A stretch of 64,000 bases of DNA, from the sequence record NC_104726.1. The stretch is one strand, 5' to 3'. Source of the DNA: a phage. The notes under the pieces were generated by a model that did no database searches, was not told where the DNA came from, and saw only the letters and a list, made by a program, of their open reading frames with translations. Positions 17,987 to 63,736 of this stretch are shown piece after piece; position 1 is the stretch's first letter; each line of letters starts with the position of its first letter. The position numbers and the translations under genes are program-made.

Positions 17987-18015
17987 TTGACTAATAGTAT
18001 CAGATAATCTATAAT
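17987..18015 (+). promoter_or_regulatory. sigma70-type promoter (TTGACT-17-TATAAT)
   Basis: Read directly: ttgactaatagtatcagataatctataat. Confidence 0.6.
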
Positions 18016-18043
18016 AATGGCTCACTTTGTTGGTGAGCCAGAA

Positions 18044-18517
18044 ATGGAGACAGATATGAGTAATGTTATGATTCCTAAAAAGACATTTATTTCAGTTACT
18101 TTAGATTTCCTAGCTACCGTCCCTGGGTTTAACGTTCGCACACGAAACGGTCTCCGAGCTGCACTCTTTGCCGTAGGGTTTGATTTAAAAAGTATTGATG
18201 TTCTTCGTGGAAAAAACGTTCGATGCAAAAATAAGCCAACACATTATCGAAAGGCAGATGTATTTGCTGGTGTTATGCGTGCAGACTTTAGATACCCGCA
18301 AATGTATAACGGTGTAGATATTTTAGATGTGGATAAAGCACCTGGTGAGGCAATGCTTGTTCAAGATCTCCCGTATGATATCCCAGTAGAGGATCGTGTT
18401 AATGTAAGAAAGTATACAAAACAATCTGAAAAGGCTGAAGATATTCATATTGTTGATGAACCTTTCAATTTTGAAGATCTGCATCGCCTGGAAAAATTAT
18501 TCGGTATTGAAAGCTAA
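18044..18517 (+). CDS. hypothetical protein
   Basis: Start moved downstream of the promoter -10 (track start 18017 lies inside the promoter); alternative ATG at 18056. Confidence 0.5.
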   Translation: METDMSNVMIPKKTFISVTLDFLATVPGFNVRTRNGLRAALFAVGFDLKSIDVLRGKNVRCKNKPTHYRKADVFAGVMRADFRYPQMYNGVDILDVDKAPGEAMLVQDLPYDIPVEDRVNVRKYTKQSEKAEDIHIVDEPFNFEDLHRLEKLFGIES

Positions 18518-45233: not shown

Positions 45234-45653
45234 TTATAATGATTCGTATATTTCAAAAATCCGATTTGCCAGGTCGTTACGGTAGCGGAATTTTTCCTCA
45301 CGTTTGATCATCAGATCTTTAAAGCCATATTCTTTAAGCACTTCATTAACTTTATGGCGGCATACCTTCATATTATCTTGAGCGTCACCAATAAACTTGT
45401 TGCTGTGGTGCATTGCTTTAATTTCTTCTTCCAGGACCAGGGCAACCACCCGGACCGGATCAAGCTGGTAGGCGGTAACATCGATGCGGCATTGTAGACG
45501 GCTTTTAACGTCTGCCACCGGATATACTGCAACCTCTTCCCCGTCAACATTGACAATAACTAGTTTACCATCGATTTCGAATCCTTTCGCCGCCGGACCG
45601 TGACAAAAAGCGTTATCAAAGCTATATGCCGGATTATTAGATTTAATGTTCAT
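45234..45653 (-). CDS. hypothetical protein (139 aa)
   Basis: ORF with SD on minus strand. Confidence 0.5.
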   Translation of the reverse strand: MNIKSNNPAYSFDNAFCHGPAAKGFEIDGKLVIVNVDGEEVAVYPVADVKSRLQCRIDVTAYQLDPVRVVALVLEEEIKAMHHSNKFIGDAQDNMKVCRHKVNEVLKEYGFKDLMIKREEKFRYRNDLANRIFEIYESL

Positions 45654-45797
45654 GGTGTTTTTACCTCTTAGTTAATTTTCTTACAACTTCCCTTCAAAAA
45701 GAATATAGCAAAACTGCCGATCCTTGTCAACCAAGGATAGCATAATTTTTATGTGATCAAGGGGCTTTATTGCCCCCTGATCGTGCAACTTGTTGTA

Positions 45798-46061
45798 TTA
45801 TTTGTTGCTCATCCAGTTTTCCCAGGCTGCCTGATAATCTGCCTCACTGCGGCGGATCTCTTCTTGCTCTTCAAGTCGGATCTCTTCTTCCAGGTACCCC
45901 AGTATATCGGCTTTTTTGGTCTGGCGTAACATCCAATCATCTTTTTTACGGGTAAAGATCTTATATGCTTTCTCGCAAACCTCTTTTTTGCTACCTTTTT
46001 GGACTTCAAGAACTTTGTAGGCCATGTACTGAACTAGTTTGAGCTGATCAAGACGTTTCAT
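45798..46061 (-). CDS. hypothetical protein (87 aa)
   Basis: AGAGG SD upstream of ATG at 46061. Confidence 0.5.
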   Translation of the reverse strand: MKRLDQLKLVQYMAYKVLEVQKGSKKEVCEKAYKIFTRKKDDWMLRQTKKADILGYLEEEIRLEEQEEIRRSEADYQAAWENWMSNK

Positions 46062-46121
46062 GATGTTTACCTCTTTATGCGGTTCTGATTAGTGGGCCTT
46101 TTGGCCCGTGTCATTATCTTA

Positions 46122-46394
46122 TTACTTATGGCGGCAGAATTCAAGCGTTTTTAATTGATAATCTTCCTCAGCCTGGAGTACGACCGCCTCGATCATTTCG
46201 TTGGCATTGTTAAAGCCATAACCTTTAGCGAAATCATCCGCGCCACCTTCGTGATCATGTTCTGCGTTCATCGCTTCCACAAAATGGAATTCAAGATTAT
46301 TGAGGTAAGGGCTTGATGTTCCGTCCTCTTTTTCGATGAGATCCCAAATAGCATTAAAACGTGATTCGACTTCTTGATTAATCCAGCTTGACAT
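46122..46394 (-). CDS. hypothetical acidic protein (90 aa)
   Basis: GGGAGGAAAA SD; leader hairpin upstream. Confidence 0.5.
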   Translation of the reverse strand: MSSWINQEVESRFNAIWDLIEKEDGTSSPYLNNLEFHFVEAMNAEHDHEGGADDFAKGYGFNNANEMIEAVVLQAEEDYQLKTLEFCRHK

Positions 46395-46604
46395 AATGTT
46401 TTCCTCCCTTCTGGTTGTTGTGTGGGCACTTTTGCCCCTTCAAGATAATGTTACCCCACCCCCTGGCAGATGTCAACGGTTTTTATAGTTCTTATATGAT
46501 AGGCAGGCCCGGTGATTGTCTCCCCCCGTCGCCAGGTGCCTGCCGTGTAATAAGTATAACAAAAAACAGGACCATTGCAAGCCCTGTTTTGTAGTTTATA
46601 AATA

Positions 46605-46796
46605 TTATATTTTTTCGCCTATGTAGTCCGGTCGGTTTTTCTCTGTCATGCGCTTAAGCAATTCTTGCATGTTGCTTATGGCTTGTAGTGTATCCTCTTC
46701 AAGGGATGAATCAAGATAATCAGGATCATTCTTCACCTTGCAATGATTATGATAACGCAGTACCGCCAGTACTTTTTTAACTTCTTCCGCTGTCAT
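46605..46796 (-). CDS. hypothetical protein (63 aa)
   Basis: ORF immediately downstream of small membrane peptide gene. Confidence 0.4.
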   Translation of the reverse strand: MTAEEVKKVLAVLRYHNHCKVKNDPDYLDSSLEEDTLQAISNMQELLKRMTEKNRPDYIGEKI

Positions 46797-46804
46797 TATC
46801 GCGC

Positions 46805-46939
46805 CTAAAACAATGAGTTAATATATAACACCAGATCGCTGACTACCAGGACAACATTAATCAGCACATACCTAACCATAAAGGGAAAGATCGCCAACAT
46901 TGCCGCCACGATCCCCATGGTAATAATTATCTTTCTCAT
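46805..46939 (-). CDS. small membrane peptide (about 44 aa)
   Basis: Read directly: ATG two bases after upstream stop; hydrophobic; not in track (under 60 aa). Confidence 0.35.
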   Translation of the reverse strand: MRKIIITMGIVAAMLAIFPFMVRYVLINVVLVVSDLVLYINSLF

Positions 46940-46941
46940 GG

Positions 46942-47226
46942 TTAACGGTTCACGTAAGTTTTCCCGTTCACGGTTATGGGCAGATCCTCCAGGTCTGGAT
47001 CTTCCTTAAGGTCGCGAGCAAGCTCACCGCACCGGATACCCTCGAATCCGTAGTACTCTGTTGTGCCGTCCTTAAAAGTTTTAGCGGCAAGGCATAAGCG
47101 ATAAGTAACCCCGATTTGATTGACGGCATGAATATCCGTTAGATTAACCTCTTTTGCCAGCTCTTTAGCCATTACAGGCGCATTAAGTCCAACAACCAGG
47201 GTAACCACTGCGATCATCTTTTTCAT
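46942..47226 (-). CDS. secreted/periplasmic protein with signal peptide (94 aa)
   Basis: N-terminal MKKMIAVVTLVVGLNAPVMA signal-like sequence; AGAGGATAGACA SD. Confidence 0.5.
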   Translation of the reverse strand: MKKMIAVVTLVVGLNAPVMAKELAKEVNLTDIHAVNQIGVTYRLCLAAKTFKDGTTEYYGFEGIRCGELARDLKEDPDLEDLPITVNGKTYVNR

Positions 47227-47317
47227 TGTGTCTATCCTCTTTCTGCTACGTTTAAGGCGGCGGTAACCGCCTGTTTATGCTTTGTTGGTTAATTTTCAGG
47301 TATCTGTGTAAATTAAA

Positions 47318-47533
47318 CTATGCTGTACGCTCAACTATAACAACGGTTTGGGGGATCTCCCCTTCCACCACTAGTAAGGCCTTTTTCTGCGTGATAGATA
47401 TCTTTACCCGTTGCAGCGTGGCGGTGAAGTCTTTCATTTCGTCACGCGGTGTTTTAGTGCAGTACCAGATCTCAGGCTTGCCGATCTGTAAGTTGCGTAA
47501 AAATTCCGTTTTGCCTGTTTTGTTAGTGATCAT
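47318..47533 (-). CDS. hypothetical protein (71 aa)
   Basis: ORF with SD GAGGTTGG. Confidence 0.45.
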   Translation of the reverse strand: MITNKTGKTEFLRNLQIGKPEIWYCTKTPRDEMKDFTATLQRVKISITQKKALLVVEGEIPQTVVIVERTA

Positions 47534-47542
47534 TTGCCAACC

Positions 47543-47647
47543 TCACCCGATACCGTTGGAAGACAAGATCATATTAGACATGGTTGCAATCAGGCCAATA
47601 CCCAGGGCAATAACCAAGATCACTGCATCGATTAATTTCTGTTTCAT
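47543..47647 (-). CDS. small membrane peptide (about 34 aa)
   Basis: Read directly: MKQKLIDAVILVIALGIGLIA...; AGAGAATAAACACC upstream; not in track. Confidence 0.3.
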   Translation of the reverse strand: MKQKLIDAVILVIALGIGLIATMSNMILSSNGIG

Positions 47648-47724
47648 GGTGTTTATTCTCTTCTGTTAGTAACCTTATTCATGGGGCCGCTACCACAGCC
47701 CCAGGGTAAGGCAGCTATGTGCTT

Positions 47725-48051
47725 TTAGTGTTTCATTCCAACCATCGCGGCACGGATCGCCGTAGTGCTGTACTTGAAGCCGTCCGGGGTCTTATCTTGT
47801 CCGGTTAGCTCCAGAAAAAGCATCATATCCCGCGCCGCATCATTACGATTAGCATTGGCGTTAATAAAGCCTTGGGCCAACCGGTACAATGACTCATCGT
47901 TATTAATCCAAAGGCTTACATTCCAATGAGTTTTGTTTTTGTAACCGTTATAACCTTTATTGCTTTTCATGATGTTTACCTCTTCTTTGTTCCAGGTGGC
48001 GGACCATTCCACCGCCTTATGTATTATGCTTTGTAAGATGGCTGTTGTCAA
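47725..48051 (-). CDS. hypothetical protein (108 aa)
   Basis: ORF with AGAGGTAAACATC SD. Confidence 0.5.
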   Translation of the reverse strand: MTTAILQSIIHKAVEWSATWNKEEVNIMKSNKGYNGYKNKTHWNVSLWINNDESLYRLAQGFINANANRNDAARDMMLFLELTGQDKTPDGFKYSTTAIRAAMVGMKH

Positions 48052-48057
48052 ACTATT

Positions 48058-48237
48058 TTAACGATAATCATCGTACGCTTTATTAACCTGGCGGATATAA
48101 CATTCAAAAGCCAGATCAATAGATTTATATTCACGGATATACTCACCATAGGAAACCACATACATTTCTATAGCTTCCTCATATGCGAGGAGAATAGAAT
48201 CTAAGCCTACGATCTCAGTCTTTGCAATAATAGCCAT
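48058..48237 (-). CDS. hypothetical small protein (about 59 aa)
   Basis: Read directly: MAIIAKTEIVGLD..., N-terminus similar to ORF at 48602-48886; AGAGGATAAAA SD; not in track. Confidence 0.35.
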   Translation of the reverse strand: MAIIAKTEIVGLDSILLAYEEAIEMYVVSYGEYIREYKSIDLAFECYIRQVNKAYDDYR

Positions 48238-48312
48238 GATTTTTATCCTCTTTGTAGTTGGTGGGGTTCGTTGCCCCCTCTGATTTATATATTACAGTCT
48301 TATATGGTCATG

Positions 48313-48546
48313 TCAACTATTTTCAAAAAATTTTTCTGCTGTGATATTCTTCCCGGTAGGGTTCGCTACTTTCAAAATTTTATCATGCACTGGACGCCCA
48401 AAAGAATAAGCGCCGTACACAGTAAACCAATAATCGCCGTCAGGTTGTACTATTACTGCCGCATATGGTACGCCTTTTTCGTTTTTGCTGACAAAATAGA
48501 TCACGTTGCCATTAATAGCCTCGGCGCGTTTAATTTGTTCCATCAT
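48313..48546 (-). CDS. hypothetical protein (77 aa)
   Basis: ORF with AGAGAGGCAAATC SD. Confidence 0.45.
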   Translation of the reverse strand: MMEQIKRAEAINGNVIYFVSKNEKGVPYAAVIVQPDGDYWFTVYGAYSFGRPVHDKILKVANPTGKNITAEKFFENS

Positions 48547-48601
48547 GATGATTTGCCTCTCTTTATTTTCATAATTGGGGGCCTTTTCGGCCCCGCCAGG
48601 T

Positions 48602-48886
48602 TTATTTATTGATAGCGTGCAGCGGGAAAGCTACGCCAGGTTGATAAATAACCTTTACAACCTCATCAGGACAAAAGAAGTTGCAGAACTCACCGCAATA
48701 GGCCTCATCCTCTTTCAACTCTTCATCAACATACTCAAAAAAGTAGTCGATGCTTGGATAATCCTGGCCGTGATTATAGTCAACCATCGTTAATAATAAC
48801 TCTTGATCATTCCGTAGGATGTGCATACCCGCTTTTAAGTATTTTGCTTCCATTTCTACTACATCGCCAGCGGTAATAATAGCCAT
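48602..48886 (-). CDS. hypothetical acidic protein (94 aa)
   Basis: ORF with AGGAGTTAAAATC SD. Confidence 0.5.
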   Translation of the reverse strand: MAIITAGDVVEMEAKYLKAGMHILRNDQELLLTMVDYNHGQDYPSIDYFFEYVDEELKEDEAYCGEFCNFFCPDEVVKVIYQPGVAFPLHAINK

Positions 48887-49088
48887 GATTTTAACTCCTA
48901 TCTATCTGGTCAACGATTGGGGGCCTCCCCCTCGACAACTCTTATTATCCATATTGTCGGGAATGATGCAAGTACTTCTTTAAAAATTTTTTAAGCGCCC
49001 CGTATGCCGTTGTAACGCCAAAATAATAAAGGCCATGCAACCGCATGGCCTTTATGTGATTATATTGCTGCAGGCCCTGCTAGGGGCC

Positions 49089-49439
49089 TTATTTTGCATT
49101 CTTGCCTGTATTGCCGCCACGGTACCAGCGTTTGCGGTGAAAATGGTAATAATCACCCTCGGCATTAAACATCAGATGATTTTCAATAACCAGCTTACGA
49201 AGGTGGGCCGGATCTTGTTCCATTCTTGCCAGATTCCGGCGGCTGTTACGTAAGCGTATAAATTCCATATTCAGGCCGTTGATTGCAGCATGGATGTCAA
49301 AGTAACCGCCTTTGAGACGTTCACGCATGGCGTTAAGCTCAACACAATATACAGATTTCTCACAAATCAAGGCATTAGCTAGGGCGCGGACCTGGGCAAG
49401 GGGGTTAAGCTCATTAAGGTAATATAGTTTGACTTTCAT
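49089..49439 (-). CDS. hypothetical protein (116 aa)
   Basis: ORF, basic C-terminus. Confidence 0.5.
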   Translation of the reverse strand: MKVKLYYLNELNPLAQVRALANALICEKSVYCVELNAMRERLKGGYFDIHAAINGLNMEFIRLRNSRRNLARMEQDPAHLRKLVIENHLMFNAEGDYYHFHRKRWYRGGNTGKNAK

Positions 49440-49456
49440 AAAATCGCCTGCTGAAA

Positions 49457-49756
49457 TTAGTTTGAGAAAACATCGTTCACAATAGCGATCACAATGCCGC
49501 CCACCTTGTCACGGTCAACAATGCACAAATCACCATGGATCATGCGGTAGTCTGGATGATCTTTCACAGAATAGTCAATAAGTGTTTTCTTGTCGTCCAG
49601 CTTCGTAACTTCCATTCTCATAACGATATGAGAATCATCAAAGGCATTATTCCGAAAAGTCATAGCCTGACCGCCAGGGCACCCGGTGATCTCCACTTCC
49701 ACACCATCTACGATCTGACCATCAAAGAAATAAAGATTATTAGCCTGGATAAACAT
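49457..49756 (-). CDS. hypothetical protein
   Basis: Start set to ATG (MFIQANN) 6 nt after AAGGAGTG SD. Confidence 0.5.
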   Translation of the reverse strand: MFIQANNLYFFDGQIVDGVEVEITGCPGGQAMTFRNNAFDDSHIVMRMEVTKLDDKKTLIDYSVKDHPDYRMIHGDLCIVDRDKVGGIVIAIVNDVFSN

Positions 49757-49802
49757 GTCTATCACTCCTTGTTAACTGCGTAGTATTTTAACAGGGTTTA
49801 AA

Positions 49803-49846
49803 TTTACTTTATTGATGGCCCTGGAGTCAAGGCCATCTAAAAATAA
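49803..49846. repeat. 44-bp repeated intergenic element, copy 1 (palindrome GATGGCC-N10-GGCCATC with embedded TTGACT on minus strand)
   Basis: tttactttattgatggccctggagtcaaggccatctaaaaataaa; near-identical copies at about 53544 and 54163. Confidence 0.7.
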
Positions 49847-49849
49847 ATT

Positions 49850-50050
49850 TTACAGGCCTACAATCTCTTTGATTCGTTTTACTGCTGCCTCAGCGCCTTG
49901 GGGGTAGAAATTATGGTAACCGATCACGCGAGTGATACTAATCGCAGTTTGATGATCTTCATAATAGCCCTTGAAGATTTCTTGACCGTCAATCAGCACG
50001 GCAATTTTTTCTTCTTTTTTGAAGTTAATAACGCGGATATTGTTGCTCAT
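49850..50050 (-). CDS. hypothetical protein (66 aa)
   Basis: AAAGGAGAAACAAA SD. Confidence 0.5.
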   Translation of the reverse strand: MSNNIRVINFKKEEKIAVLIDGQEIFKGYYEDHQTAISITRVIGYHNFYPQGAEAAVKRIKEIVGL

Positions 50051-50191
50051 TTTGTTTCTCCTTTCTGGTTTTTGTGTTGGTGGGGATTAGCTCCCCGTTG
50101 ATTATTATTATCCATATTTCGGACCGGATTGCAACACCCCGGAAGAAAAATTTTTTGAAAAAGTTAGGCCCCCAGGGATCGGGGGCCGTTA

Positions 50192-50311
50192 TCAGTTACT
50201 TACAGCGATAAAATACATCCCTACGCCTAACAATATTTCAAGGGCGATGATCTCAAGCCATACCATAACCCGGCGCACCTTATCGGTGCGGGGCTTATCC
50301 TTGGTTGTCAT
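50192..50311 (-). CDS. small membrane peptide (about 39 aa)
   Basis: Read directly: MTTKDKPRTDKVRRVMVWLEIIALEILLGVGMYFIAV; AGGGGGAG SD; start overlaps upstream stop (ATGA); not in track. Confidence 0.35.
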   Translation of the reverse strand: MTTKDKPRTDKVRRVMVWLEIIALEILLGVGMYFIAVSN

Positions 50312-50553
50312 CGTCTCCCCCTTTCATCCTGGTAGTAGTGACGTGGTTTACAATGGCCCCCAGGAGTACCATCACCACGCACATCACAAGAAAAATTATC
50401 TCTGTCGTTGTTCGATCCATTGTTATAAAATTCCTTAAGATCAGGCCTGAAAATAAAGCGTTCGTTATTGAATCCATCACGCCAGGCGGCTGGCTTCAAA
50501 TCTTCATCAAAGGGATTAATTAACGTGGTATTATTTAAACGGCTGGCCCACAT
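50308..50553 (-). CDS. hypothetical protein (start uncertain)
   Basis: ATG after GAGGAA SD; an alternative overlapping frame (50295-50420) encodes a hydrophobic 41-aa peptide with its own SD. Confidence 0.35.
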   Translation of the reverse strand: MWASRLNNTTLINPFDEDLKPAAWRDGFNNERFIFRPDLKEFYNNGSNNDRDNFSCDVRGDGTPGGHCKPRHYYQDERGRR

Positions 50554-50902
50554 ATTTTCTATTCCTCTCAAATAGGCGATCCGCCTCAGTTAAACAAATC
50601 TCATGGGCGTGATCTCTGGTTTTAGCTTCATCGAAAACCTGTTGTGCAAGGCTGCAGCGTAGGGAGACTGGAAGATCACTATAATAGGCGTTGACAAATG
50701 TTTGCGCGTCATACAGGTCGGAAAATACTTTACCCTTTCTATTATCGCCTTTGTCAACAATTGCAAGGATAACAAGTACAATAGTTGCAACCACCCCCAG
50801 GAAAATAGATATAATAAACCATAAAAAGGCGGATCTACCCATCTTGCCAGCGATCCAGGCGTTAAACAAGGCAACTAATACGGCCAAAATAATAAATTCC
50901 AT
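50531..50902 (-). CDS. membrane protein with two N-terminal transmembrane helices
   Basis: Start at ATG (MEFIILAVLVALF) after AAGAGG SD; second helix FLWFIISIFLGVVATIVLVILAIV. Confidence 0.5.
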   Translation of the reverse strand: MEFIILAVLVALFNAWIAGKMGRSAFLWFIISIFLGVVATIVLVILAIVDKGDNRKGKVFSDLYDAQTFVNAYYSDLPVSLRCSLAQQVFDEAKTRDHAHEICLTEADRLFERNRKYVGQPFK

Positions 50903-50966
50903 TCTATGTACCTCTTTTGCAGTTCTGTTTAACAATAAGGCGGCAAATATGCCGCCTGTTACCTGA

Positions 50967-51347
50967 TTAAAAATTATCGCCGTAAATCTTTCCGCTTTCT
51001 GCCCACACCACCACGCGGGGCATACTATCCCACACGTCTTGTTTTAGATTGAGCGCGTGCAATTCTTCAGTGGTGCCCATACCAGGCACGGGCTGATTGT
51101 ATACTGCAAAACGACCACCTGCATAATCATAGGCCAGGGTTAAATCACACTGAATCATCTTTTTGATCATGGCGTTGAGCATAGCGTTAGCCGCATACTG
51201 GTCACGTTTTAAAGGCAACTCTTTGATTAGTTTGCGATAGTTTTCAATGTGATCGCACACTGTTTCACGTGGAAGATCTTTCATATCCTCGCGAAAGGTA
51301 ACCAGGTTAAACATAACGGTGTCAATAGCTTTAGTAGTGTTTTTCAT
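50967..51347 (-). CDS. hypothetical protein (126 aa)
   Basis: AGAGGAAAACATT SD; leader hairpin. Confidence 0.5.
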   Translation of the reverse strand: MKNTTKAIDTVMFNLVTFREDMKDLPRETVCDHIENYRKLIKELPLKRDQYAANAMLNAMIKKMIQCDLTLAYDYAGGRFAVYNQPVPGMGTTEELHALNLKQDVWDSMPRVVVWAESGKIYGDNF

Positions 51348-51437
51348 AATGTTTTCCTCTTTGTTTTGTGTGGGGCAAACGTCTTGCCCCCCTTGAGTTT
51401 TAATATAGCAGGTTTTTAGATTATTGCAACACTTTAT

Positions 51438-52061
51438 TTATGAAAAACTCATCTCTCCATATTCATCCACATCAAACCGCCAATCATTGGCCTCAATAAG
51501 GCCGATCAGGTTTTCGGTAGTGAACTGTTCTAGATAGGCCTCCTCCAGGTCTACGTAAACCTTGCGGGATAGCTCCCGTACCGTCTCGGTGATCAGCTCT
51601 TCCAGGTCTTCCACTTTGTTTTCTTGTTTGGCGGTCAGATCTAGCCAGGTGGTATCAATGTATCCGCTTACAGTGTTTTCATGGCTGTAATGGCTGTACT
51701 TGTCGCGTTCAACACTGGCTGATAACTCGCCATCGTGCATTGTGCCGAACAAGTGACGAATTGATCGGAACTTGGTCAGGGCCTTTACTTTACGCAAAAA
51801 TTTTTCTAAATCCACGTTTTCAGCACTGATTGACGCGCCGTCACCCTGGCACCAAAAGCCGGACCAATGTACTTTGGTATCTTCAAGGCCGTACTCTGGA
51901 AAGATATATTCTTTGTAGTGTTCAATTACACTTTCTGCAAAAAAGTCATCCCCGCTGTGTTCTTCTCTTTCGCGTACCATTTCAATGGCTTTTTCTTTTT
52001 GTTCGTCGGTCAGCACGTCGAAAGATAAATTGTAACCTGTGGTAATGTTAACGGTGGTCAT
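51438..52061 (-). CDS. hypothetical acidic protein (207 aa)
   Basis: AGGAGAAAATATC SD; promoter and leader hairpin upstream; HWSGFWCQGDGA segment. Confidence 0.55.
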   Translation of the reverse strand: MTTVNITTGYNLSFDVLTDEQKEKAIEMVREREEHSGDDFFAESVIEHYKEYIFPEYGLEDTKVHWSGFWCQGDGASISAENVDLEKFLRKVKALTKFRSIRHLFGTMHDGELSASVERDKYSHYSHENTVSGYIDTTWLDLTAKQENKVEDLEELITETVRELSRKVYVDLEEAYLEQFTTENLIGLIEANDWRFDVDEYGEMSFS

Positions 52062-52118
52062 GATATTTTCTCCTGTTTTCTTTGTTAGTGGCGGTAAGTT
52101 TTCCCGCCTGTGTGTTTA

Positions 52119-52146
52119 ATTATACTTATTGAGATTTACTTGTCAA
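52119..52146 (-). promoter_or_regulatory. sigma70-type promoter on minus strand (TTGACA-16-TATAAT)
   Basis: Reverse complement reads ttgacaagtaaatctcaataagtataat; drives gene 51438-52061. Confidence 0.6.
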
Positions 52147-52396
52147 CACTATTTTTTAAATTATTGTGGCGCAAAATGTTTAAAATCTCCTCAACGTCAT
52201 CAACACGGCGGCAATTTTTAAACGCTACCAATTGCCCCATGATTTTAATCACTGGGCGGCCTTGCCAGTGCCCCTGGAGAAAGCGCGCCTTGACTTTATC
52301 GGTGGAACTATCACGCCACCAAATGGCCTTGTTGTTGCAGTAGTAAAAATTATTCAGGACAACATCAACTTTATCAAAATTTTTTAATTTACGCAT
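52136..52396 (-). CDS. hypothetical protein (86 aa)
   Basis: ORF downstream of the minus-strand promoter at about 52429-52456. Confidence 0.45.
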   Translation of the reverse strand: MRKLKNFDKVDVVLNNFYYCNNKAIWWRDSSTDKVKARFLQGHWQGRPVIKIMGQLVAFKNCRRVDDVEEILNILRHNNLKNSVDK

Positions 52397-52428
52397 GGCG
52401 TTTACGCCTTTCTCTCTTTGATGTGGTT

Positions 52429-52456
52429 AGTATAGCTAACCTGTTTAAGATGTCAA
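52429..52456 (-). promoter_or_regulatory. sigma70-type promoter on minus strand (TTGACA-16-TATACT)
   Basis: Reverse complement reads ttgacatcttaaacaggttagctatact. Confidence 0.55.
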
Positions 52457-52600
52457 GCTTTAAATAAAATCACTGTCAATGATATTTTTAACGCCATAAA
52501 ACGGCCCTAAGCGATGTTTTCAGGTTAAAGGGGGGCGATTGCATAGGTGGGGCCTTTTTGGCGCTTACAGGGCCAACCAGGGGCGCTATTCGTAGGATAG

Positions 52601-52629
52601 AAATAAAAAGCCCCGCACAATGGCGGGGC
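52601..52629 (-). terminator. rho-independent terminator (minus strand)
   Basis: gccccgc-acaatg-gcggggc hairpin followed on minus strand by tttttattt; just after the stop at 52638. Confidence 0.6.
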
Positions 52630-52637
52630 GTTGGTTG

Positions 52638-52859
52638 TTATTTGTCTTTATGGCGGTATCGTTCTGCCTGTCGTTCACGTTCCAAAAGTAGGCCAGGCAA
52701 TTTACGATCATAATGATTTCGCCAGATCTTTCCAAATCTTTTTGGCTTATTCAGTTTATTGTTACGCTGGCGTCGTTCCGGCAGCTCTTCGGAATCATGA
52801 GATCGCTTTACAATCTTCTCAAAATTAATCTTCATATATTCCCCCCTTGCTAACTTCAA
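52638..52859 (-). CDS. hypothetical basic protein (73 aa)
   Basis: ORF; Arg/Lys-rich. Confidence 0.45.
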   Translation of the reverse strand: MKLARGEYMKINFEKIVKRSHDSEELPERRQRNNKLNKPKRFGKIWRNHYDRKLPGLLLERERQAERYRHKDK

Positions 52860-53178
52860 TATTGGCCTGAATCGCCCGGATACGCCGTTTTATAACCTCC
52901 TGATCCTTGCAATCATATCCCCAAAAGTCTACGATTTTTGCGCCTCCAGCCTTTAGGCGGTATAGTGTTTCTTGCATCTTGTAAGCCGGGATCGGTCGCG
53001 GTGTTACCTGGTCTCCTTTCTCATCCTTGTACTTGATAATATAGTCTTCATTGTCGTTGAATACCCAAAATGGGTATTCTGTGAGCGCGTTGCTCTCTTT
53101 CTCGTTTTTAGATTGGATCTTGTTTACAATTAAAGCCGTAGCAATAGCGCCAATAATAAAACTAGCCCCGCTGATCAT
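52825..53178 (-). CDS. membrane-anchored protein (N-terminal TM)
   Basis: Start at ATG (MISGASFIIGAIATALIV) after AAGGAG SD. Confidence 0.5.
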   Translation of the reverse strand: MISGASFIIGAIATALIVNKIQSKNEKESNALTEYPFWVFNDNEDYIIKYKDEKGDQVTPRPIPAYKMQETLYRLKAGGAKIVDFWGYDCKDQEVIKRRIRAIQANIEVSKGGIYED

Positions 53179-53254
53179 GTTACTTTCTCCTTTCATGGTG
53201 TTAATAAACTATCTTTATAGATGGCCCTGCCACCAGGGCCACCGAAAAAACAGC

Positions 53255-53500
53255 TTATTTGACAATACCGACAAAACAGATCCCACCTTCCCCAACATAG
53301 GCGATGTCGGTAACCTTATAATTGGTTAAGATCTGCTTATTTAGTTCATTAATAAAATCGGTCATCGCGTTGGTGTAGTTGTCTTCCATGTCTAGGGAAT
53401 AATCCCAGGTGTAAACCTTTTTACGTCCGAAGCCTTTTACCATGATACGGGCGCTTTTGGTGTTGGTAGGGGCGTAATATTTGGTAATTAGTGCGGCCAT
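53255..53500 (-). CDS. hypothetical protein (81 aa)
   Basis: AGGAGTTAAAACC SD. Confidence 0.5.
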   Translation of the reverse strand: MAALITKYYAPTNTKSARIMVKGFGRKKVYTWDYSLDMEDNYTNAMTDFINELNKQILTNYKVTDIAYVGEGGICFVGIVK

Positions 53501-53543
53501 GGTTTTAACTCCTATGCATTAGTTCAGTGTTAACAGTATAAAG

Positions 53544-53587
53544 TTTACTTTATTGATGGCCCTGGTGTCAAGGCCATCTAAAAATAA
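53544..53587. repeat. 44-bp repeated intergenic element, copy 2
   Basis: tttactttattgatggccctggtgtcaaggccatctaaaaataa. Confidence 0.7.
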
Positions 53588-53589
53588 TC

Positions 53590-53931
53590 TTACTCGTTTT
53601 CTTCCAGCTCCGCAAGCTCTTCTTTTGCTTCTTCCAACTCTGTCTGTAATTCCTGGTATTCTTCATCGTCCTCAATATCCAGGCTGTCGATGTAGTCGCT
53701 AAATCCGCAGCGGTAAGCGATAGGATCTAGCTCCTTGAGGATACGCGACGGAAGAAAAGAAATGTTTCCGATCATAATTTCGCCGTAGATCTCGTCTAAC
53801 CATTCATCATAGTTTTCGTCGTACTTGTCCTCGTCGATTTCAAAGTTATCGATCTTGTTCTCAAGGTCTGCGATCTGTTTTTTCAGCGCGGCGATCTGCA
53901 TAGCTTTATCTGCGGCGGTCATAGTAGTCAT
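53590..53931 (-). CDS. hypothetical acidic coiled-coil protein (113 aa)
   Basis: AAGGAGAAAACACC SD; D/E-rich. Confidence 0.5.
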   Translation of the reverse strand: MTTMTAADKAMQIAALKKQIADLENKIDNFEIDEDKYDENYDEWLDEIYGEIMIGNISFLPSRILKELDPIAYRCGFSDYIDSLDIEDDEEYQELQTELEEAKEELAELEENE

Positions 53932-53981
53932 GGTGTTTTCTCCTTTTGTGTGTTCTGGGAAGTTTTCCCGTTTATGTGGTT

Positions 53982-54009
53982 AGTATACTGATCTAAGTTA
54001 GCTTGTCAA
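53982..54009 (-). promoter_or_regulatory. sigma70-type promoter on minus strand (TTGACA-16-TATACT)
   Basis: Reverse complement reads ttgacaagctaacttagatcagtatact. Confidence 0.55.
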
Positions 54010-54129
54010 TTAAAAGTTTAAGAAAAATTTTGCGATACCGTTGGCGCTACCCATCAACATTTGCGCCAGGATGTAACCAATGATGCAAACGATAATAGTT
54101 ACCTTTGTGTGCTGGCGTGTAGTACTCAT
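54010..54129 (-). CDS. small membrane peptide (about 39 aa)
   Basis: Read directly: MSTTRQHTKVTIIVCIIGYILAQMLMG...; AAGGGGG SD; not in track. Confidence 0.35.
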   Translation of the reverse strand: MSTTRQHTKVTIIVCIIGYILAQMLMGSANGIAKFFLNF

Positions 54130-54162
54130 CTTTAAGCCCCCTTTCCGCTCAACTGTGGTTAG

Positions 54163-54207
54163 TTTACTTTATTGATGGCCCTGGAGTCAAGGCCATCTAA
54201 AAATAAA
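54163..54207. repeat. 44-bp repeated intergenic element, copy 3
   Basis: tttactttattgatggccctggagtcaaggccatctaaaaataaa. Confidence 0.7.
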
Positions 54208-54208
54208 C

Positions 54209-54604
54209 TCAGTAAGTTTTCAGTACTTTCCCGTCCAATCTGTCAAGCTGGATCTCGATAGCTGCAGAAAACCTATTATAAACCACATCGCCCATGGAGT
54301 CCAGCCAATCTATGACGTTATACACCTGCTCTTTATTCTTGCAAGTCCGGATCCGTTTCATTACGTAAGACGGATCAATATTAGTGCTCTCGTTGTTGTG
54401 GTCATGCGCCTGGCCTGCTGCATTAGCTATAGATTTTACAACCACCTGAAAGGGCTTTAAGGTGCCTTTTGCGTTCATCTCACGCGCTTTTGCGGCGCGG
54501 TTGTTATATGTTACACAACGGCGGCAAATGTTGACCAAATGCATATCAATAATTTTTTCATCGTTTGCCAGTTCGTTCATGATGCGGCGTACGTTCTTAT
54601 TCAT
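54209..54604 (-). CDS. hypothetical protein (131 aa)
   Basis: AAGGAAAAAGATC SD; leader hairpin ggcgggaa...ttcccgcc upstream. Confidence 0.5.
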   Translation of the reverse strand: MNKNVRRIMNELANDEKIIDMHLVNICRRCVTYNNRAAKAREMNAKGTLKPFQVVVKSIANAAGQAHDHNNESTNIDPSYVMKRIRTCKNKEQVYNVIDWLDSMGDVVYNRFSAAIEIQLDRLDGKVLKTY

Positions 54605-54688
54605 GATCTTTTTCCTTTGTGTTGGCGGGAAACATTCCCGCCTTTTGTGTCTAGTTTACTTTAATTTTGCAGCGTGTCAATAATTTTT

Positions 54689-55087
54689 TTATTCGTGGGC
54701 ACATGTTACAATGTGCTTTTTATAGCCTAGGTGGTTAGCAAGTGCCGACAAAAACTCTTCTTCATAGATCCAGCCGTTGGCAGTGATCCCCATAGCATTT
54801 AATGCGCTCTCAAGTGCTGCGTTAGCTTTATCATAACCGTGACCGCTCGCCTTGCCGCCAGTATAACCGTACTTATTGTTCTTGTTGTCGTGCATCCAAA
54901 AAACGCAGTAGTTAGTGTTACCGCTGGCGGCGGCATAGTACCGGATCTCCGCTACTTCGTGCAAATTATTATCATCGTCCAGGCCAACCAGATTATAAGC
55001 CTTGTAAAATCCACGATCACGGCGGCAGTTCTTGACATCAGAAAAAGAGAAGTCGGCATTATCAAAATTAAAGGTAGTGGTTTTCAT
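54689..55087 (-). CDS. hypothetical protein (132 aa)
   Basis: AAGAGGATAAAATC SD; promoter upstream. Confidence 0.5.
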   Translation of the reverse strand: MKTTTFNFDNADFSFSDVKNCRRDRGFYKAYNLVGLDDDNNLHEVAEIRYYAAASGNTNYCVFWMHDNKNNKYGYTGGKASGHGYDKANAALESALNAMGITANGWIYEEEFLSALANHLGYKKHIVTCAHE

Positions 55088-55119
55088 GATTTTATCCTCT
55101 TAGTGTCTTTTGCGATTTC

Positions 55120-55148
55120 AGTATATTTTGTGTCAGACCATATGTCAA
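55120..55148 (-). promoter_or_regulatory. sigma70-type promoter on minus strand (TTGACA-17-TATACT)
   Basis: Reverse complement reads ttgacatatggtctgacacaaaatatact. Confidence 0.6.
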
Positions 55149-55150
55149 CA

Positions 55151-55348
55151 TTATTTTTTATTAAACCAGTGGTTGATCTGACCTTTTGTCAGGGCGCAAC
55201 GGTTAAGCTGTTGCAGGGTATAGCTATGACCGCGACGAAATTTATAAAGGCCTTGCCCGTTGTTGATGGTTACATCCACCCGGCAAATCACTTGATTGGT
55301 GACCACCTGGCGAGTGTTGCGACGTACTTTAATTCCGTAGGCGTTCAT
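55151..55348 (-). CDS. hypothetical protein (65 aa)
   Basis: GAGAGGATAAAAAATC SD. Confidence 0.45.
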   Translation of the reverse strand: MNAYGIKVRRNTRQVVTNQVICRVDVTINNGQGLYKFRRGHSYTLQQLNRCALTKGQINHWFNKK

Positions 55349-55426
55349 GATTTTTTATCCTCTCTGTTAATTGGTGTGGTGTTGTTCACCTTGCGAGGAT
55401 AAGAATAACAAGAACTGTCCGAGCTG

Positions 55427-55609
55427 TCAACCATTAGTTAAAATTATTTTTGGGTAGAATTCTCCAGCCGCCGCCCCTGCCAGGTTAACCATCATTTTTT
55501 CGTACTCTTCTTTATGTTCCAACGCTCCCGCCATAGCCTTTTCAACCAGGGCGATAGCCTCAGCGTCATTAATAGCTACATTTTCCAGGGGGATCATATT
55601 ACCTTCCAT
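55427..55609 (-). CDS. hypothetical protein (60 aa)
   Basis: GAGGAGGTACAAAA SD. Confidence 0.45.
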   Translation of the reverse strand: MEGNMIPLENVAINDAEAIALVEKAMAGALEHKEEYEKMMVNLAGAAAGEFYPKIILTNG

Positions 55610-55869
55610 TTTTGTACCTCCTCTTCAATTGTTACCTATCCTATAGCATAGGCCCACCAGGTTTGCAAGCCTTCATTATCTCCTACCTGGTCAGTTAGGC
55701 CCTGCCAGGCTGGCCCCGCCAGGTTGCAGCGGTCAGCGCATCAGGTTAGAATTTTTTTTTTGAAAAGTGTTGACAGCGGCCCCGCCAGGTGGCAAAATAT
55801 ACCTATCGAAAGGACGGCAGGCACCGGTGACGGGGGAGACAACCACCGGGGATGGGCGCTGCATGAAAT

Positions 55870-55889: not shown

Positions 55890-56005
55890 TCTAAAAATTT
55901 ATGCAAAAACTTCTTGCTTTCTTTGTCCTGTGTGTTACTATAATAACAAGCCGGGGCAGTAGGGGCCGGGAGACAATCACCGGGCCTGCCCGTTATTCTG
56001 CAAAC

Positions 56006-56022: not shown

Positions 56023-56135
56023 AAAATTCTAAATGAGAACTCCTCGCATTTAATAAATTTAATTAGCACGCTAATTACCCTCCGTAACAATTTCCTATAA
56101 AATAGTATCCACTAAAATATTCCCATATAGAAATT

Positions 56136-56320
56136 TTAAAAATCCATTTCTGAAAACGAAAAATCGATTTCGTCCCCAAAAATTTCAGGCCAAGAGCCGG
56201 AGCGATTTCCAGAAAATCCGATTCAGAAAACGAAAAACAGATCAAGTACTGAGAAATTTATCGAGAAAAATTTTCAGAAAATCCAAGCCCTGAAATGAAA
56301 AGTAGATCGAGTACCTGGAA
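56136..56320. repeat. three imperfect about 40-bp A-rich direct repeats (AGAAAATCC...TGAAAACGAAAAA...GAT...)
   Basis: Units starting near 56139, 56212 and 56277 with 65-73 bp periodicity. Confidence 0.55.
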
Positions 56321-56626
56321 AGCTGCACCGCAACTTCAAGATAGTGGTTAGATTGTTACCATAGAAGGTCAAGGGTAAGTGGAGGAAGTTCTAGTAGAGG
56401 GAGGTTAGCATGTGTGGGAAATCTATAATGGTGGCCTGGAATATGGTGCAAACGATAGGATGAGTTATTCAGCTTGTCGCGCCTACTCTGAAAAATCCAT
56501 TTTAGTTTTCGATCCATTTTCTGATTTTCTAAGAATTTTAAAATATCTGGCCCGGTGAAATATCAAAAGGAGGAAATCCATTTTAGAAATCCCCCTTATA
56601 CTTGATATGCCAGGAATTTTCAAGTA

Positions 56627-63419: not shown

Positions 63420-63736
63420 GCTTCCTCGTCGTCTAAGGAGTTGAAGATTTCACCGAAATATTCTAAGACTTCTAGCTCTCGTGTGGTGCAGAAAACACAG
63501 TCACCGTTGTCATCCTCGATAACGGCCTCTTTACCCAGCACATCTACTTCAAGTTTATCGTTCAACAGGACGGCCCCTGTGTAAACTTTGTCAGCTGTGC
63601 AGTCCCGAAAAGCAGAGTCCTTCTCTAGATAGTCTGGCTTAACCTTGGCTTTAATTCGTTGATATTGTTTGGTCATTGCTGTGGTCCCCTTTCGTTTTGA
63701 TAGGACCATTGTATTAGGTCCTATCGCTGTTGTCAA
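63416..63736 (-). CDS. hypothetical protein, paralogue of 63740-63994
   Basis: Shared DSAFRDCT / DRAFKDCT block and Cys spacing. Confidence 0.5.
   Translation of the reverse strand: MTTAIGPNTMVLSKRKGTTAMTKQYQRIKAKVKPDYLEKDSAFRDCTADKVYTGAVLLNDKLEVDVLGKEAVIEDDNGDCVFCTTRELEVLEYFGEIFNSLDDEEA

Follow-up and report, generated by a model that had tools for sequence, protein, structure and literature searches.

The 64,000 nucleotides (nt) of sequence record NC_104726.1, here called the window, come from the genome of an rV5-like (Vequintavirus) coliphage. In a minus-strand block of small genes within the window, a module recurs in which a sigma70 promoter is followed by a compact GC hairpin, an A/C-rich and T-poor spacer, a Shine-Dalgarno (SD) sequence and an ATG. 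These modules are best classed as early cassette joints similar to the known promoter/stem-loop cassettes (promoter-early stem-loops, PeSLs), in a form whose hairpin is transcribed and non-terminating, in the Vequintavirinae and Stephanstirmvirinae. The first-pass annotation of the window had described such a recurrent layout in the segment 45234-55609, and we confirmed it, with ten modules in the block; the two hairpins that had been quoted as examples are those of modules 3 and 4 (Table 1), both on the minus strand. Three points go beyond that description: cassettes of promoter and stem-loop are already known as a class, to which the module belongs; the block also has similar hairpins over -35 and in promoter-less gaps; and the modules are recombination joints. 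We consider it highly probable that the modules are PeSL-like cassettes with a role in recombination.

Layout, folding and conservation of the leader hairpins

The hairpin-module block extends over 46.0-54.7 kb of the minus strand and contains nine modules with strong promoters and one with a weak promoter but the same layout. The strong promoters match TTGACA-16/17-TATAAT at 9-12 of 12 positions. As read by eye, the -35 hexamer is preceded by an AT-rich stretch that holds the upstream stop codon, for example gaataaaaaaatta and taaaaaatagtg, each directly followed by TTGACA. The hairpin begins 5-12 nt past -10, with free energies of -4 to -13 kcal/mol, and the ATG lies 19-32 nt past the hairpin. 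The first 8 nt of the spacers consist of 57% A, 28% C, 6% G and 9% T.

The placement of the hairpins, which the first-pass annotation had held to be conserved, was compared with chance in several ways. For each of the ten hairpins, 96-100% of the shuffles that preserved the dinucleotides of its leader were less stable (p 0-0.04). At random positions of a related genome, examined at the same offset, a hairpin of -7 kcal/mol or lower was found in 8.6% and one of -9 kcal/mol or lower in 2.6%. When modules from four genomes were pooled (50 modules, 35 distinct hairpins), the stem started 10-11 nt past -10 in 37 of the 50. The claim of conserved placement thus held, and the placement is non-random. 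A strict automated count restricted to the window gave a hairpin at 6 of 14 promoters in the block and at 4 of 24 elsewhere (Fisher p=0.06); this count overlooked four modules that were verified by hand, and the doubt raised by its borderline value is removed because the modules recur in three genera (see below).

Folding predictions gave stem pairing probabilities of 0.78-1.00, both in the module's own transcript and in read-through RNA carrying 200 nt of upstream sequence. The 8 nt after the window leader hairpins contain 0-2 T residues and no U tract, and a terminator scan called none of these hairpins on the minus strand. An Rfam covariance search of 44-64 kb returned a single match, at chance level (E=0.29; 34 bits, where the gathering score is 94). 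When 28 paralogous hairpins were combined into a MAFFT/RNAalifold consensus, no structure emerged, because stems of unequal length were misaligned.

IMG/VR provided only two close relatives, and comparisons were made with GenBank records. For each element of the ten modules, we determined the fraction of variable columns in alignments with up to seven relatives (83-97% identity). It was lowest in the -10 (0.07) and -35 (0.08) hexamers and in the 5' arm of the stem (0.10), intermediate in the 3' arm (0.19) and the promoter spacer (0.20), and highest in the stretch between -10 and the stem, which includes the predicted 5' tail (0.29), and in the loop (0.48). This pattern supports purifying selection on the stems, with loops free to vary. 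Orthologous modules retain a hairpin despite changes in the loop and inner stem (for example, ggggagctaatcccc versus ggggagacactcccc). In phage C5, an A-U pair of module 4 is replaced by G.U and one pair is added, and a hairpin of the module-4 type stands in place of the module 9 hairpin. Where the window hairpins of modules 3 and 8 have mismatches, most relatives have base pairs. Counted to see on which strand selection acts, stems contained 11 G.U pairs versus 3 A.C mismatches, a count that includes non-independent copies of hairpins ascertained on the sense strand.

In some relatives the loop is exactly reverse-complemented and the arms are unchanged (TGT/ACA, GACGT/ACGTC). Such loops were observed when the window hairpins 54642-54624 and 51390-51372 were compared with loci L003 and L015. 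Reverse-complemented loops between identical arms are the signature of palindrome-mediated template switching or inversion.

The module in other genera and its relation to PeSLs

In the complete 137-kb genome of phage D#, a Vequintavirus closely related to the window phage, compact leader hairpins occur in this block only (the 50-60 kb bin), and its many other strong promoters have bare leaders of 20-30 nt. The module is far more regular in Phapecoctavirus EP57, where about 20 copies within 12 kb take the form TTGACA-16-TAAACT, gtattacgtag, then GGCGGCAATGGTGCCGCC or GGCGGGAATAGTTCCCGCC, then tcacaacagaagagag and ATG. A second Phapecoctavirus carries it at 11 of 12 promoter units (140-149 kb), and Justusliebigvirus alia at 10 of 17 (80-90 kb). 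Within the genomes of D#, Justusliebigvirus alia and a Phapecoctavirus, the module is restricted to a single block of ORFans. Among the 35 distinct hairpins, the 5' arms contain 166 G and 41 C and the 3' arms 42 G and 156 C. In the 50 pooled modules, T makes up 15% of the 8 nt that follow the hairpin, and the ATG lies 14-32 nt past it. A BLAST search with one module matched 155 phage records of these groups.

Part of the element has been annotated before under another name. In the phAPEC8 record (NC_020079), the 20-mer catagggcggcaatggtgcc (L017 2536-2555) is labelled 'putative promoter determined with PHIRE'. It consists of the 5' tail and most of the leader hairpin and lies immediately 3' of a sigma70 promoter defined with MEME; the PHIRE 'promoter' and the leader hairpin are the same element. 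The record notes neither its palindromic, hairpin nature nor its fixed site downstream of the sigma70 promoter. We found no earlier description of leader hairpins in these phages in the searchable literature, and the paper on rV5 lists 33 sigma70-type promoters and leaves leader hairpins unmentioned (PMC3606486).

PeSLs are known from the T4-like phages RB49/phi1, PST and nt-1 (Arbiol et al. 2010, PMC2839356; Comeau et al. 2014, PMC4122927), and in the literature searched the term is used for T4-like phages only. In RB49/phi1, a PeSL is made up of an AT-rich region, a strong sigma70 promoter downstream of it, a stem-loop with a G-run and a C-run, an SD sequence and an ORFan (PMC2839356, PMC4122927). 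PeSLs are clustered in hyperplastic regions, are active as promoters and have a role in ORFan shuffling; attenuation of transcription from upstream has been proposed for them, and their recombination into mini-circles has been shown (same sources). The window modules share with them the strong promoter of sigma70 consensus, the AT-rich upstream region holding the stop codon of the preceding gene, the G-run followed by a C-run, the A/C-rich leader with SD and ATG, the many copies in blocks of small ORFans and the indel junctions that fall within the motifs in close relatives. As with PeSLs, several positional subclasses occur in one genome, since the window also has forms over -35 and over -10.

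The differences concern lineage and position. The modules belong to Vequintavirinae and Stephanstirmvirinae, not to Straboviridae. When we checked the RB49 sequence, the stem-loops lay between -35 and -10 or over -10 (for example, TTGACAggggatcggtgatccccTATAAT), with an A/C-rich leader following; most RB49 stem-loops are therefore absent from the cassette's own RNA. The dominant form in the window, in contrast, starts 10-11 nt past -10 and lacks a U tract. Because it lies downstream of both -10 and the predicted start site, it is part of the cassette's own mRNA. The PeSL paper also lists a rarer subclass 'downstream of -10'. A blastn-short comparison with RB49/phi1 PeSLs gave only 13-19-nt matches, over the AT-rich region and -35. 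With no similarity beyond the promoter consensus, the modules are analogous to PeSLs and not demonstrably homologous. The PeSL concept thereby reaches beyond T4-like phages, in a form with a transcribed hairpin.

Homology breakpoints between the window and its relatives fall on the modules, and three junctions were resolved at the sequence level. The first is in the IMG/VR contig L002, which lacks 54161-53590 and has at the junction a single chimeric copy of a 49-nt repeat (53590/54161; Table 1); a crossover between copies 1 and 2 of the repeat explains this deletion. The second is a cassette consisting of promoter 45730, gene 45653-45234 and terminator 45215-45196, which is missing from both A142 and L002; the junction, 45214/45759, lies inside the GC hairpins 45782-45755 and 45215-45196. 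The third is found in D# and C5, which lack gene 47970-47725, with a junction (47664/47956) in two SD/ATG leaders, which places gene 47647 under promoter 48051 and its hairpin. In addition, similarity to several relatives breaks off precisely at 48042/48043, in the spacer of promoter 48051, and Murica and D# carry an insertion of ~355 bp at the element 46563..46590. Two Phapecoctavirus genomes differ by a 3.9-kb stretch of about nine cassettes with a module at each end, and single genes common to the window and Phapecoctavirus are arranged differently in the two, every one of them with a module of its own. This evidence consists of individually observed breakpoints; on that footing, the genome comparisons show that the repeated module supplies homology for deletion, insertion, replacement and gene conversion of cassettes between related phages.

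The rV5-, phAPEC8- and phi92-like phages are widely used candidates for therapy and biocontrol. Small early ORFans make up about a fifth of their genes and probably serve host takeover and anti-defence. These ORFans come in uniform cassettes of promoter, hairpin and ribosome-binding site, and gene content changes at the cassette ends; such joints explain mosaic differences among isolates. The module also offers a natural design, compact and testable, for expression that is strong and insulated.

Possible roles of the transcribed hairpin

We propose that each cassette is a single-gene early joint made of an AT-rich stretch, a host sigma70 promoter, a stem-loop, an unstructured spacer, an SD sequence and the ATG of a small gene. 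The start site used here is predicted as the usual seventh nt (+/- 1) after -10. The stem-loop would then occupy about +3 to +25 of its own transcript, and would also be present within read-through RNA from upstream cassettes. It is not expected to terminate transcription, because no U tract follows and because termination would abort the RNA of its own promoter. Instead, it might act as a 5'-proximal RNA clamp and cistron boundary that reduces decay dependent on the 5' end and shields the open, U-poor ribosome-binding region from pairing with upstream RNA. The outcome would be uniformly high, context-independent early expression of each ORFan. Taken as a whole, a PeSL-type early cassette joint with a clamp or boundary hairpin is the best explanation and a somewhat probable one; the specific role as RNA stabiliser or insulator we put forward only tentatively. 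The first-pass proposal of a shared post-transcriptional feature is partly supported: the structure and its placement are confirmed and the stems are under selection, whereas the function is putative and its 5'-protection version borderline.

Several observations weigh against the clamp. The predicted unpaired 5' tail is about 3-5 nt long (0 for module 8), and RppH and RNase E need at least 2 unpaired nt and prefer at least 3 (PMC8833179). Both enzymes should therefore still gain access, which is what makes 5' protection borderline. Scanning RNase E readily bypasses a simple stem-loop (PMC9943677), and for this reason we dropped a role as obstacle to the scanning enzyme. No transcriptome of a Vequintavirus or Phapecoctavirus was found in the searchable literature, and the start sites are predictions. 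Part of the constancy in hairpin spacing could come from shared ancestry of the copies. The palindromes form hairpins of about equal stability on either strand: the sense strand was the more stable in 17 cases versus 5 overall and in 4 versus 2 in the window, numbers that include non-independent copies and hairpins ascertained on the sense strand. Finally, similar hairpins occur in promoter-less gaps and over -35 within the same block; a 5'-terminal position is therefore not universally required.

A cellular parallel is provided by the 5' stem-loops that stabilise the ompA and papA mRNAs of E. coli; base-paired 5' ends slow RNase E (reviewed in PMC3997798). The modules resemble ompA hp1 and the papA stabiliser (work of the Belasco laboratory, cited in PMC3997798) in having a stable hairpin near the mRNA 5' end followed by an accessible ribosome-binding site, and differ in that those hairpins lie about 0-2 nt from the 5' end, compared with the predicted tail of 3-5 nt here.

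Short GC hairpins are also found at early promoters of another lytic coliphage, N4. There, the promoter consists of the DNA hairpin, which is recognised by the virion RNA polymerase and is located upstream of the start site. An N4-type hairpin promoter was set aside for the modules, in which canonical -35 and -10 boxes precede the hairpin. A boxB-like antitermination site was likewise set aside, as the loops share no motif.

One could envision several alternatives. The first, which is the original reading of PeSLs, is that the stem-loop acts as an attenuator or terminator that damps upstream transcription while each gene is driven by its own promoter. One RB49 stem-loop cut expression of downstream lacZ about as much as rrnB T1 did (PMC2839356). 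In the window, a GC hairpin lies 5-60 nt past the upstream stop codon in almost every intergenic gap of the block, and the 49-nt repeat is labelled 'terminator' in the record of a relative, Murica (L001, 13772-13816 and 17159-17203). With their GC-rich stems of 5-9 bp and loops of 3-9 nt, the leader hairpins indeed look like intrinsic terminators. However, they are followed by A/C-rich sequence with no U tract (9-15% T overall in the next 8 nt) and lie between promoter and SD instead of at a transcript end. Being downstream of its own promoter, an efficient terminator at this site would abort the RNA at about +25, and none of the leader hairpins was called on the minus strand, unlike the true terminators 52629, 50187, 49055 and 45215. 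We regard attenuation as unlikely.

A second alternative is that the hairpins have no function in RNA and that the palindromes owe their maintenance or spread solely to DNA recombination, as joints at the ends of mobile cassettes, or to hitch-hiking with the promoter. The indel junctions within modules, the gene conversion between modules, the loop inversions typical of palindrome-mediated template switching and the equal folding of both strands are all in keeping with this. Homologous recombination, though, requires similarity and not a hairpin; stems are conserved and loops are not in sequences that have otherwise diverged; and the ten window hairpins differ in sequence yet keep their pairing and position. 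A DNA-only explanation is, in our view, rather unlikely.

According to a third alternative, the hairpin is the site of a phage-encoded regulator, be it an RNA-binding protein, an endonuclease or a DNA-binding repressor, that switches the whole ORFan regulon off or on jointly. In Phapecoctavirus and Justusliebigvirus, conservation among about 20 copies covers the stem base GGCGG and the 11 nt that precede the stem, gtatCAC(A/G)TAG, but not the promoter spacer, which leaves room for a factor-binding role. The position, +3 to +25, is a classic one for an operator or roadblock, and PHIRE detected the phAPEC8 20-mer, which was annotated as a 'putative promoter'. On the other hand, the window hairpins share no loop, tail or inner-stem sequence, and loops evolve fastest and can even invert. 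Because pairing is selected and loops are not, recognition of the loop by a specific protein is argued against. The distance from the conserved GGCGG to CCGCC varies over 8-13 nt, which is a poor fit to a rigid dimeric DNA binder; a DNA operator was ruled out as the leading explanation by this variable half-site spacing. A regulator site thus seems improbable.

More speculatively, the hairpin could be the handle of a dedicated system, either as the site of a phage factor that jointly controls or protects the ORFan regulon or as an attC-like hairpin in single-stranded DNA for excision of cassettes as circles and their re-insertion. We give this idea little credence. If its attC-like form were true, the blocks would be an integron-like gene-exchange platform of the rV5-, phAPEC8- and phi92-like phages.

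Least likely by far is that the hairpins are antisense terminators guarding the strong promoters from head-on RNA polymerase: several do score as terminator-like on the plus strand (for example, GGCGGGAAACATTCCCGCC TTTTGTGTCT, 54624-54642), since the A-rich start region has a T-rich complement, but the block has no plus-strand genes or strong plus-strand promoters and the antisense tail in Phapecoctavirus, TACGTAATAC, is not U-rich.

Other hairpins, genes of the block and neighbouring repeats

The coordinates of the modules and of other hairpin elements in the block are collected in Table 1.

Table 1. Leader-hairpin modules and other hairpin elements of the block (window coordinates; hairpin energies in kcal/mol)
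Feature	Position (strand)	-35 at	Promoter	Hairpin	Spacer	ATG	Remark
Module 1	54602..54680 (-)	54680	TTGACA-16-TAAACT	54642-54624 ggcgggaatgtttcccgcc, -13.1	aacacaaagg..	54604	
Module 2	53929..54009 (-)	54009	TTGACA-16-TATACT	53969-53957 gggaaaacttccc, weak	agaacacacaaaaggag	53931	paired with module 3 by repeat D4
Module 3	52059..52146 (-)	52146	TTGACA-16-TATAAT (12/12)	52108-52090 ggcgggaaaacttaccgcc		52061	hairpin in relatives ..cttcccgcc, -13.1
Module 4	51345..51429 (-)	51429	TTGCAA-16-TATATT	51390-51372 ggggcaagacgtttgcccc	acacaaaacaaagagg	51347	
Module 5	50048..50134 (-)	50134	TTGCAA-16-GATAAT	50096-50082 ggggagctaatcccc	accaacacaaaaaccagaaaggag	50050	
Module 6	48884..48971 (-)	48971	TTGCAT-16-GATAAT	48931-48919 gggggaggccccc		48886	
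Module 7	48235..48316 (-)	48316	TTGACA-16-TAATAT	48278-48263 gggggcaacgaacccc		48237	hairpin in relatives ggggcaacaagcccc
Module 8	47968..48051 (-)	48051	TTGACA-17-CATAAT	48017-47994 aggcggtggaatggtccgccacct		47970	hairpin 5 nt past -10
Module 9	46392..46476 (-)	46476	TTGACA-17-TAACAT	46437-46424 gggcaaaagtgccc	acacaacaaccagaagggagg	46394	
Module 10	46059..46144 (-)	46144	TTGAAT-17-TAAGAT (8/12), weak	46107-46094 gggccaaaaggccc		46061	
49-nt repeat, copy 1	54161..54209 (-)		-10 TAAACT	gatggccTTGACTccagggccatc			-35 in loop
49-nt repeat, copy 2	53542..53590 (-)						
49-nt repeat, degenerate copy	53207..53255 (-)						69% identity; without TTGAC
49-nt repeat, copy 4	49801..49849 (-)		TTGACT-18-TAAATT				
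Terminator-like hairpin	46563..46590 (-)		TTGCAA-16-TATACT	aaaacagggcTTGCAAtggtcctgtttt			-35 in loop
Double hairpin	45715..45782 (-)			45782-45755; 45742-45715			first without T run; second over -35 of promoter 45730; left junction of the cassette missing from A142 and L002
Terminator with T run	52629						
Terminator with T run	50957 (50957-50938)						
Terminator with T run	50187						
Terminator with T run	49055						
Terminator with T run	45215 (45215-45196)						
Promoter-less GC hairpin	48578..48594 (-)			ggggccgaaaaggcccc		48546	31 nt before ATG

The intergenic hairpins of the block are of four kinds: leader hairpins, the 49-nt repeat, terminators with T runs and promoter-less hairpins. 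No leader hairpin follows four of the strong promoters (55430, 55148, 52456 and 45730), and at promoters 54190, 53571 and 49830 a hairpin lies over -35 rather than in the leader. The 49-nt repeat, a second module type (family D1; four copies, at 49801, 53207, 53542 and 54161), forms the hairpin gatggccTTGACNccagggccatc with -35 in its loop, and the elements at 46590 and 45742 are of similar build. Two annotations are corrected by these results, that of the phAPEC8 hairpin as a 'promoter' and that of the 49-nt promoter-in-hairpin element of Murica as a 'terminator'. The promoter-less hairpins, which have no T runs and lie 28-34 nt before an ATG, are at 48594, 47703 (47703-47682) and 47272 (47272-47255). 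The terminator hairpin 50957-50938 likewise lies in a gap that has no promoter.

The module layout is also found beyond the block, at 17987-18060 on the plus strand, where a gap of 3 nt separates the strong promoter TTGACT-17-TATAAT from the hairpin GGCTCACTTTGTTGGTGAGCC (-12.8 kcal/mol), after which come an SD sequence and an ATG; this arrangement of promoter and hairpin is conserved in phage D#. At promoter 63736 (63699-63736, minus strand; TTGACA-17-TACAAT), the hairpin gataggacctaaTACAATggtcctatc lies over -10, as in typical RB49 PeSLs.

The segment 45234-55609 corresponds to the distal end of a long transcription unit described on the minus strand of rV5 and is 93-97% identical to Vequintavirus E. 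coli myophages such as A6-1, inoa, FFH2, Murica and the rV5_ev isolates. About 17-19 of its 30 minus-strand genes have a sigma70-like promoter of their own. A consensus scan of 44-57 kb gave 50 promoter-like sites, compared with 30.8 +/- 5.3 in shuffles, the best of them nearly all on the minus strand. The genes of the block are annotated in relatives as essentially all hypothetical, and the proteins encoded downstream of the ten modules all fall into PHROGs of unknown function, one of them being DUF7249.

Matches at 93-96% identity to the window also came from a set of 23 unverified, unannotated GenBank records (MG0656xx; loci L010-L015) that are named 'Campylobacter phage' and are rV5-like or phi92-like coliphage genomes. 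Their host label is probably wrong.

Three further repeats were observed near the block. An ORF-poor stretch (about 55.65-56.4 kb) contains three copies of a ~52-nt direct repeat (56131-56321, spacing 65-74 nt), which has an iteron-like look and may correspond to the 'non-coding' box of the rV5 map. The 17-mer CCGGTGATTGTCTCCCC occurs three times, compared with 0.06 expected, at 46509-46525 (+), 55833-55849 (-) and 55967-55983 (-); it sits within a GC-rich imperfect palindrome of ~40 nt, and its copies, one of them inverted relative to the other two, lie at the two ends of the hairpin-module block. Counting close variants, the 13-mer ACCTGGCGGGGCC has six occurrences in the window, where 0.5 would be expected (55473-55790 and 48589-48601), and four of the six cluster upstream of gene 55609.

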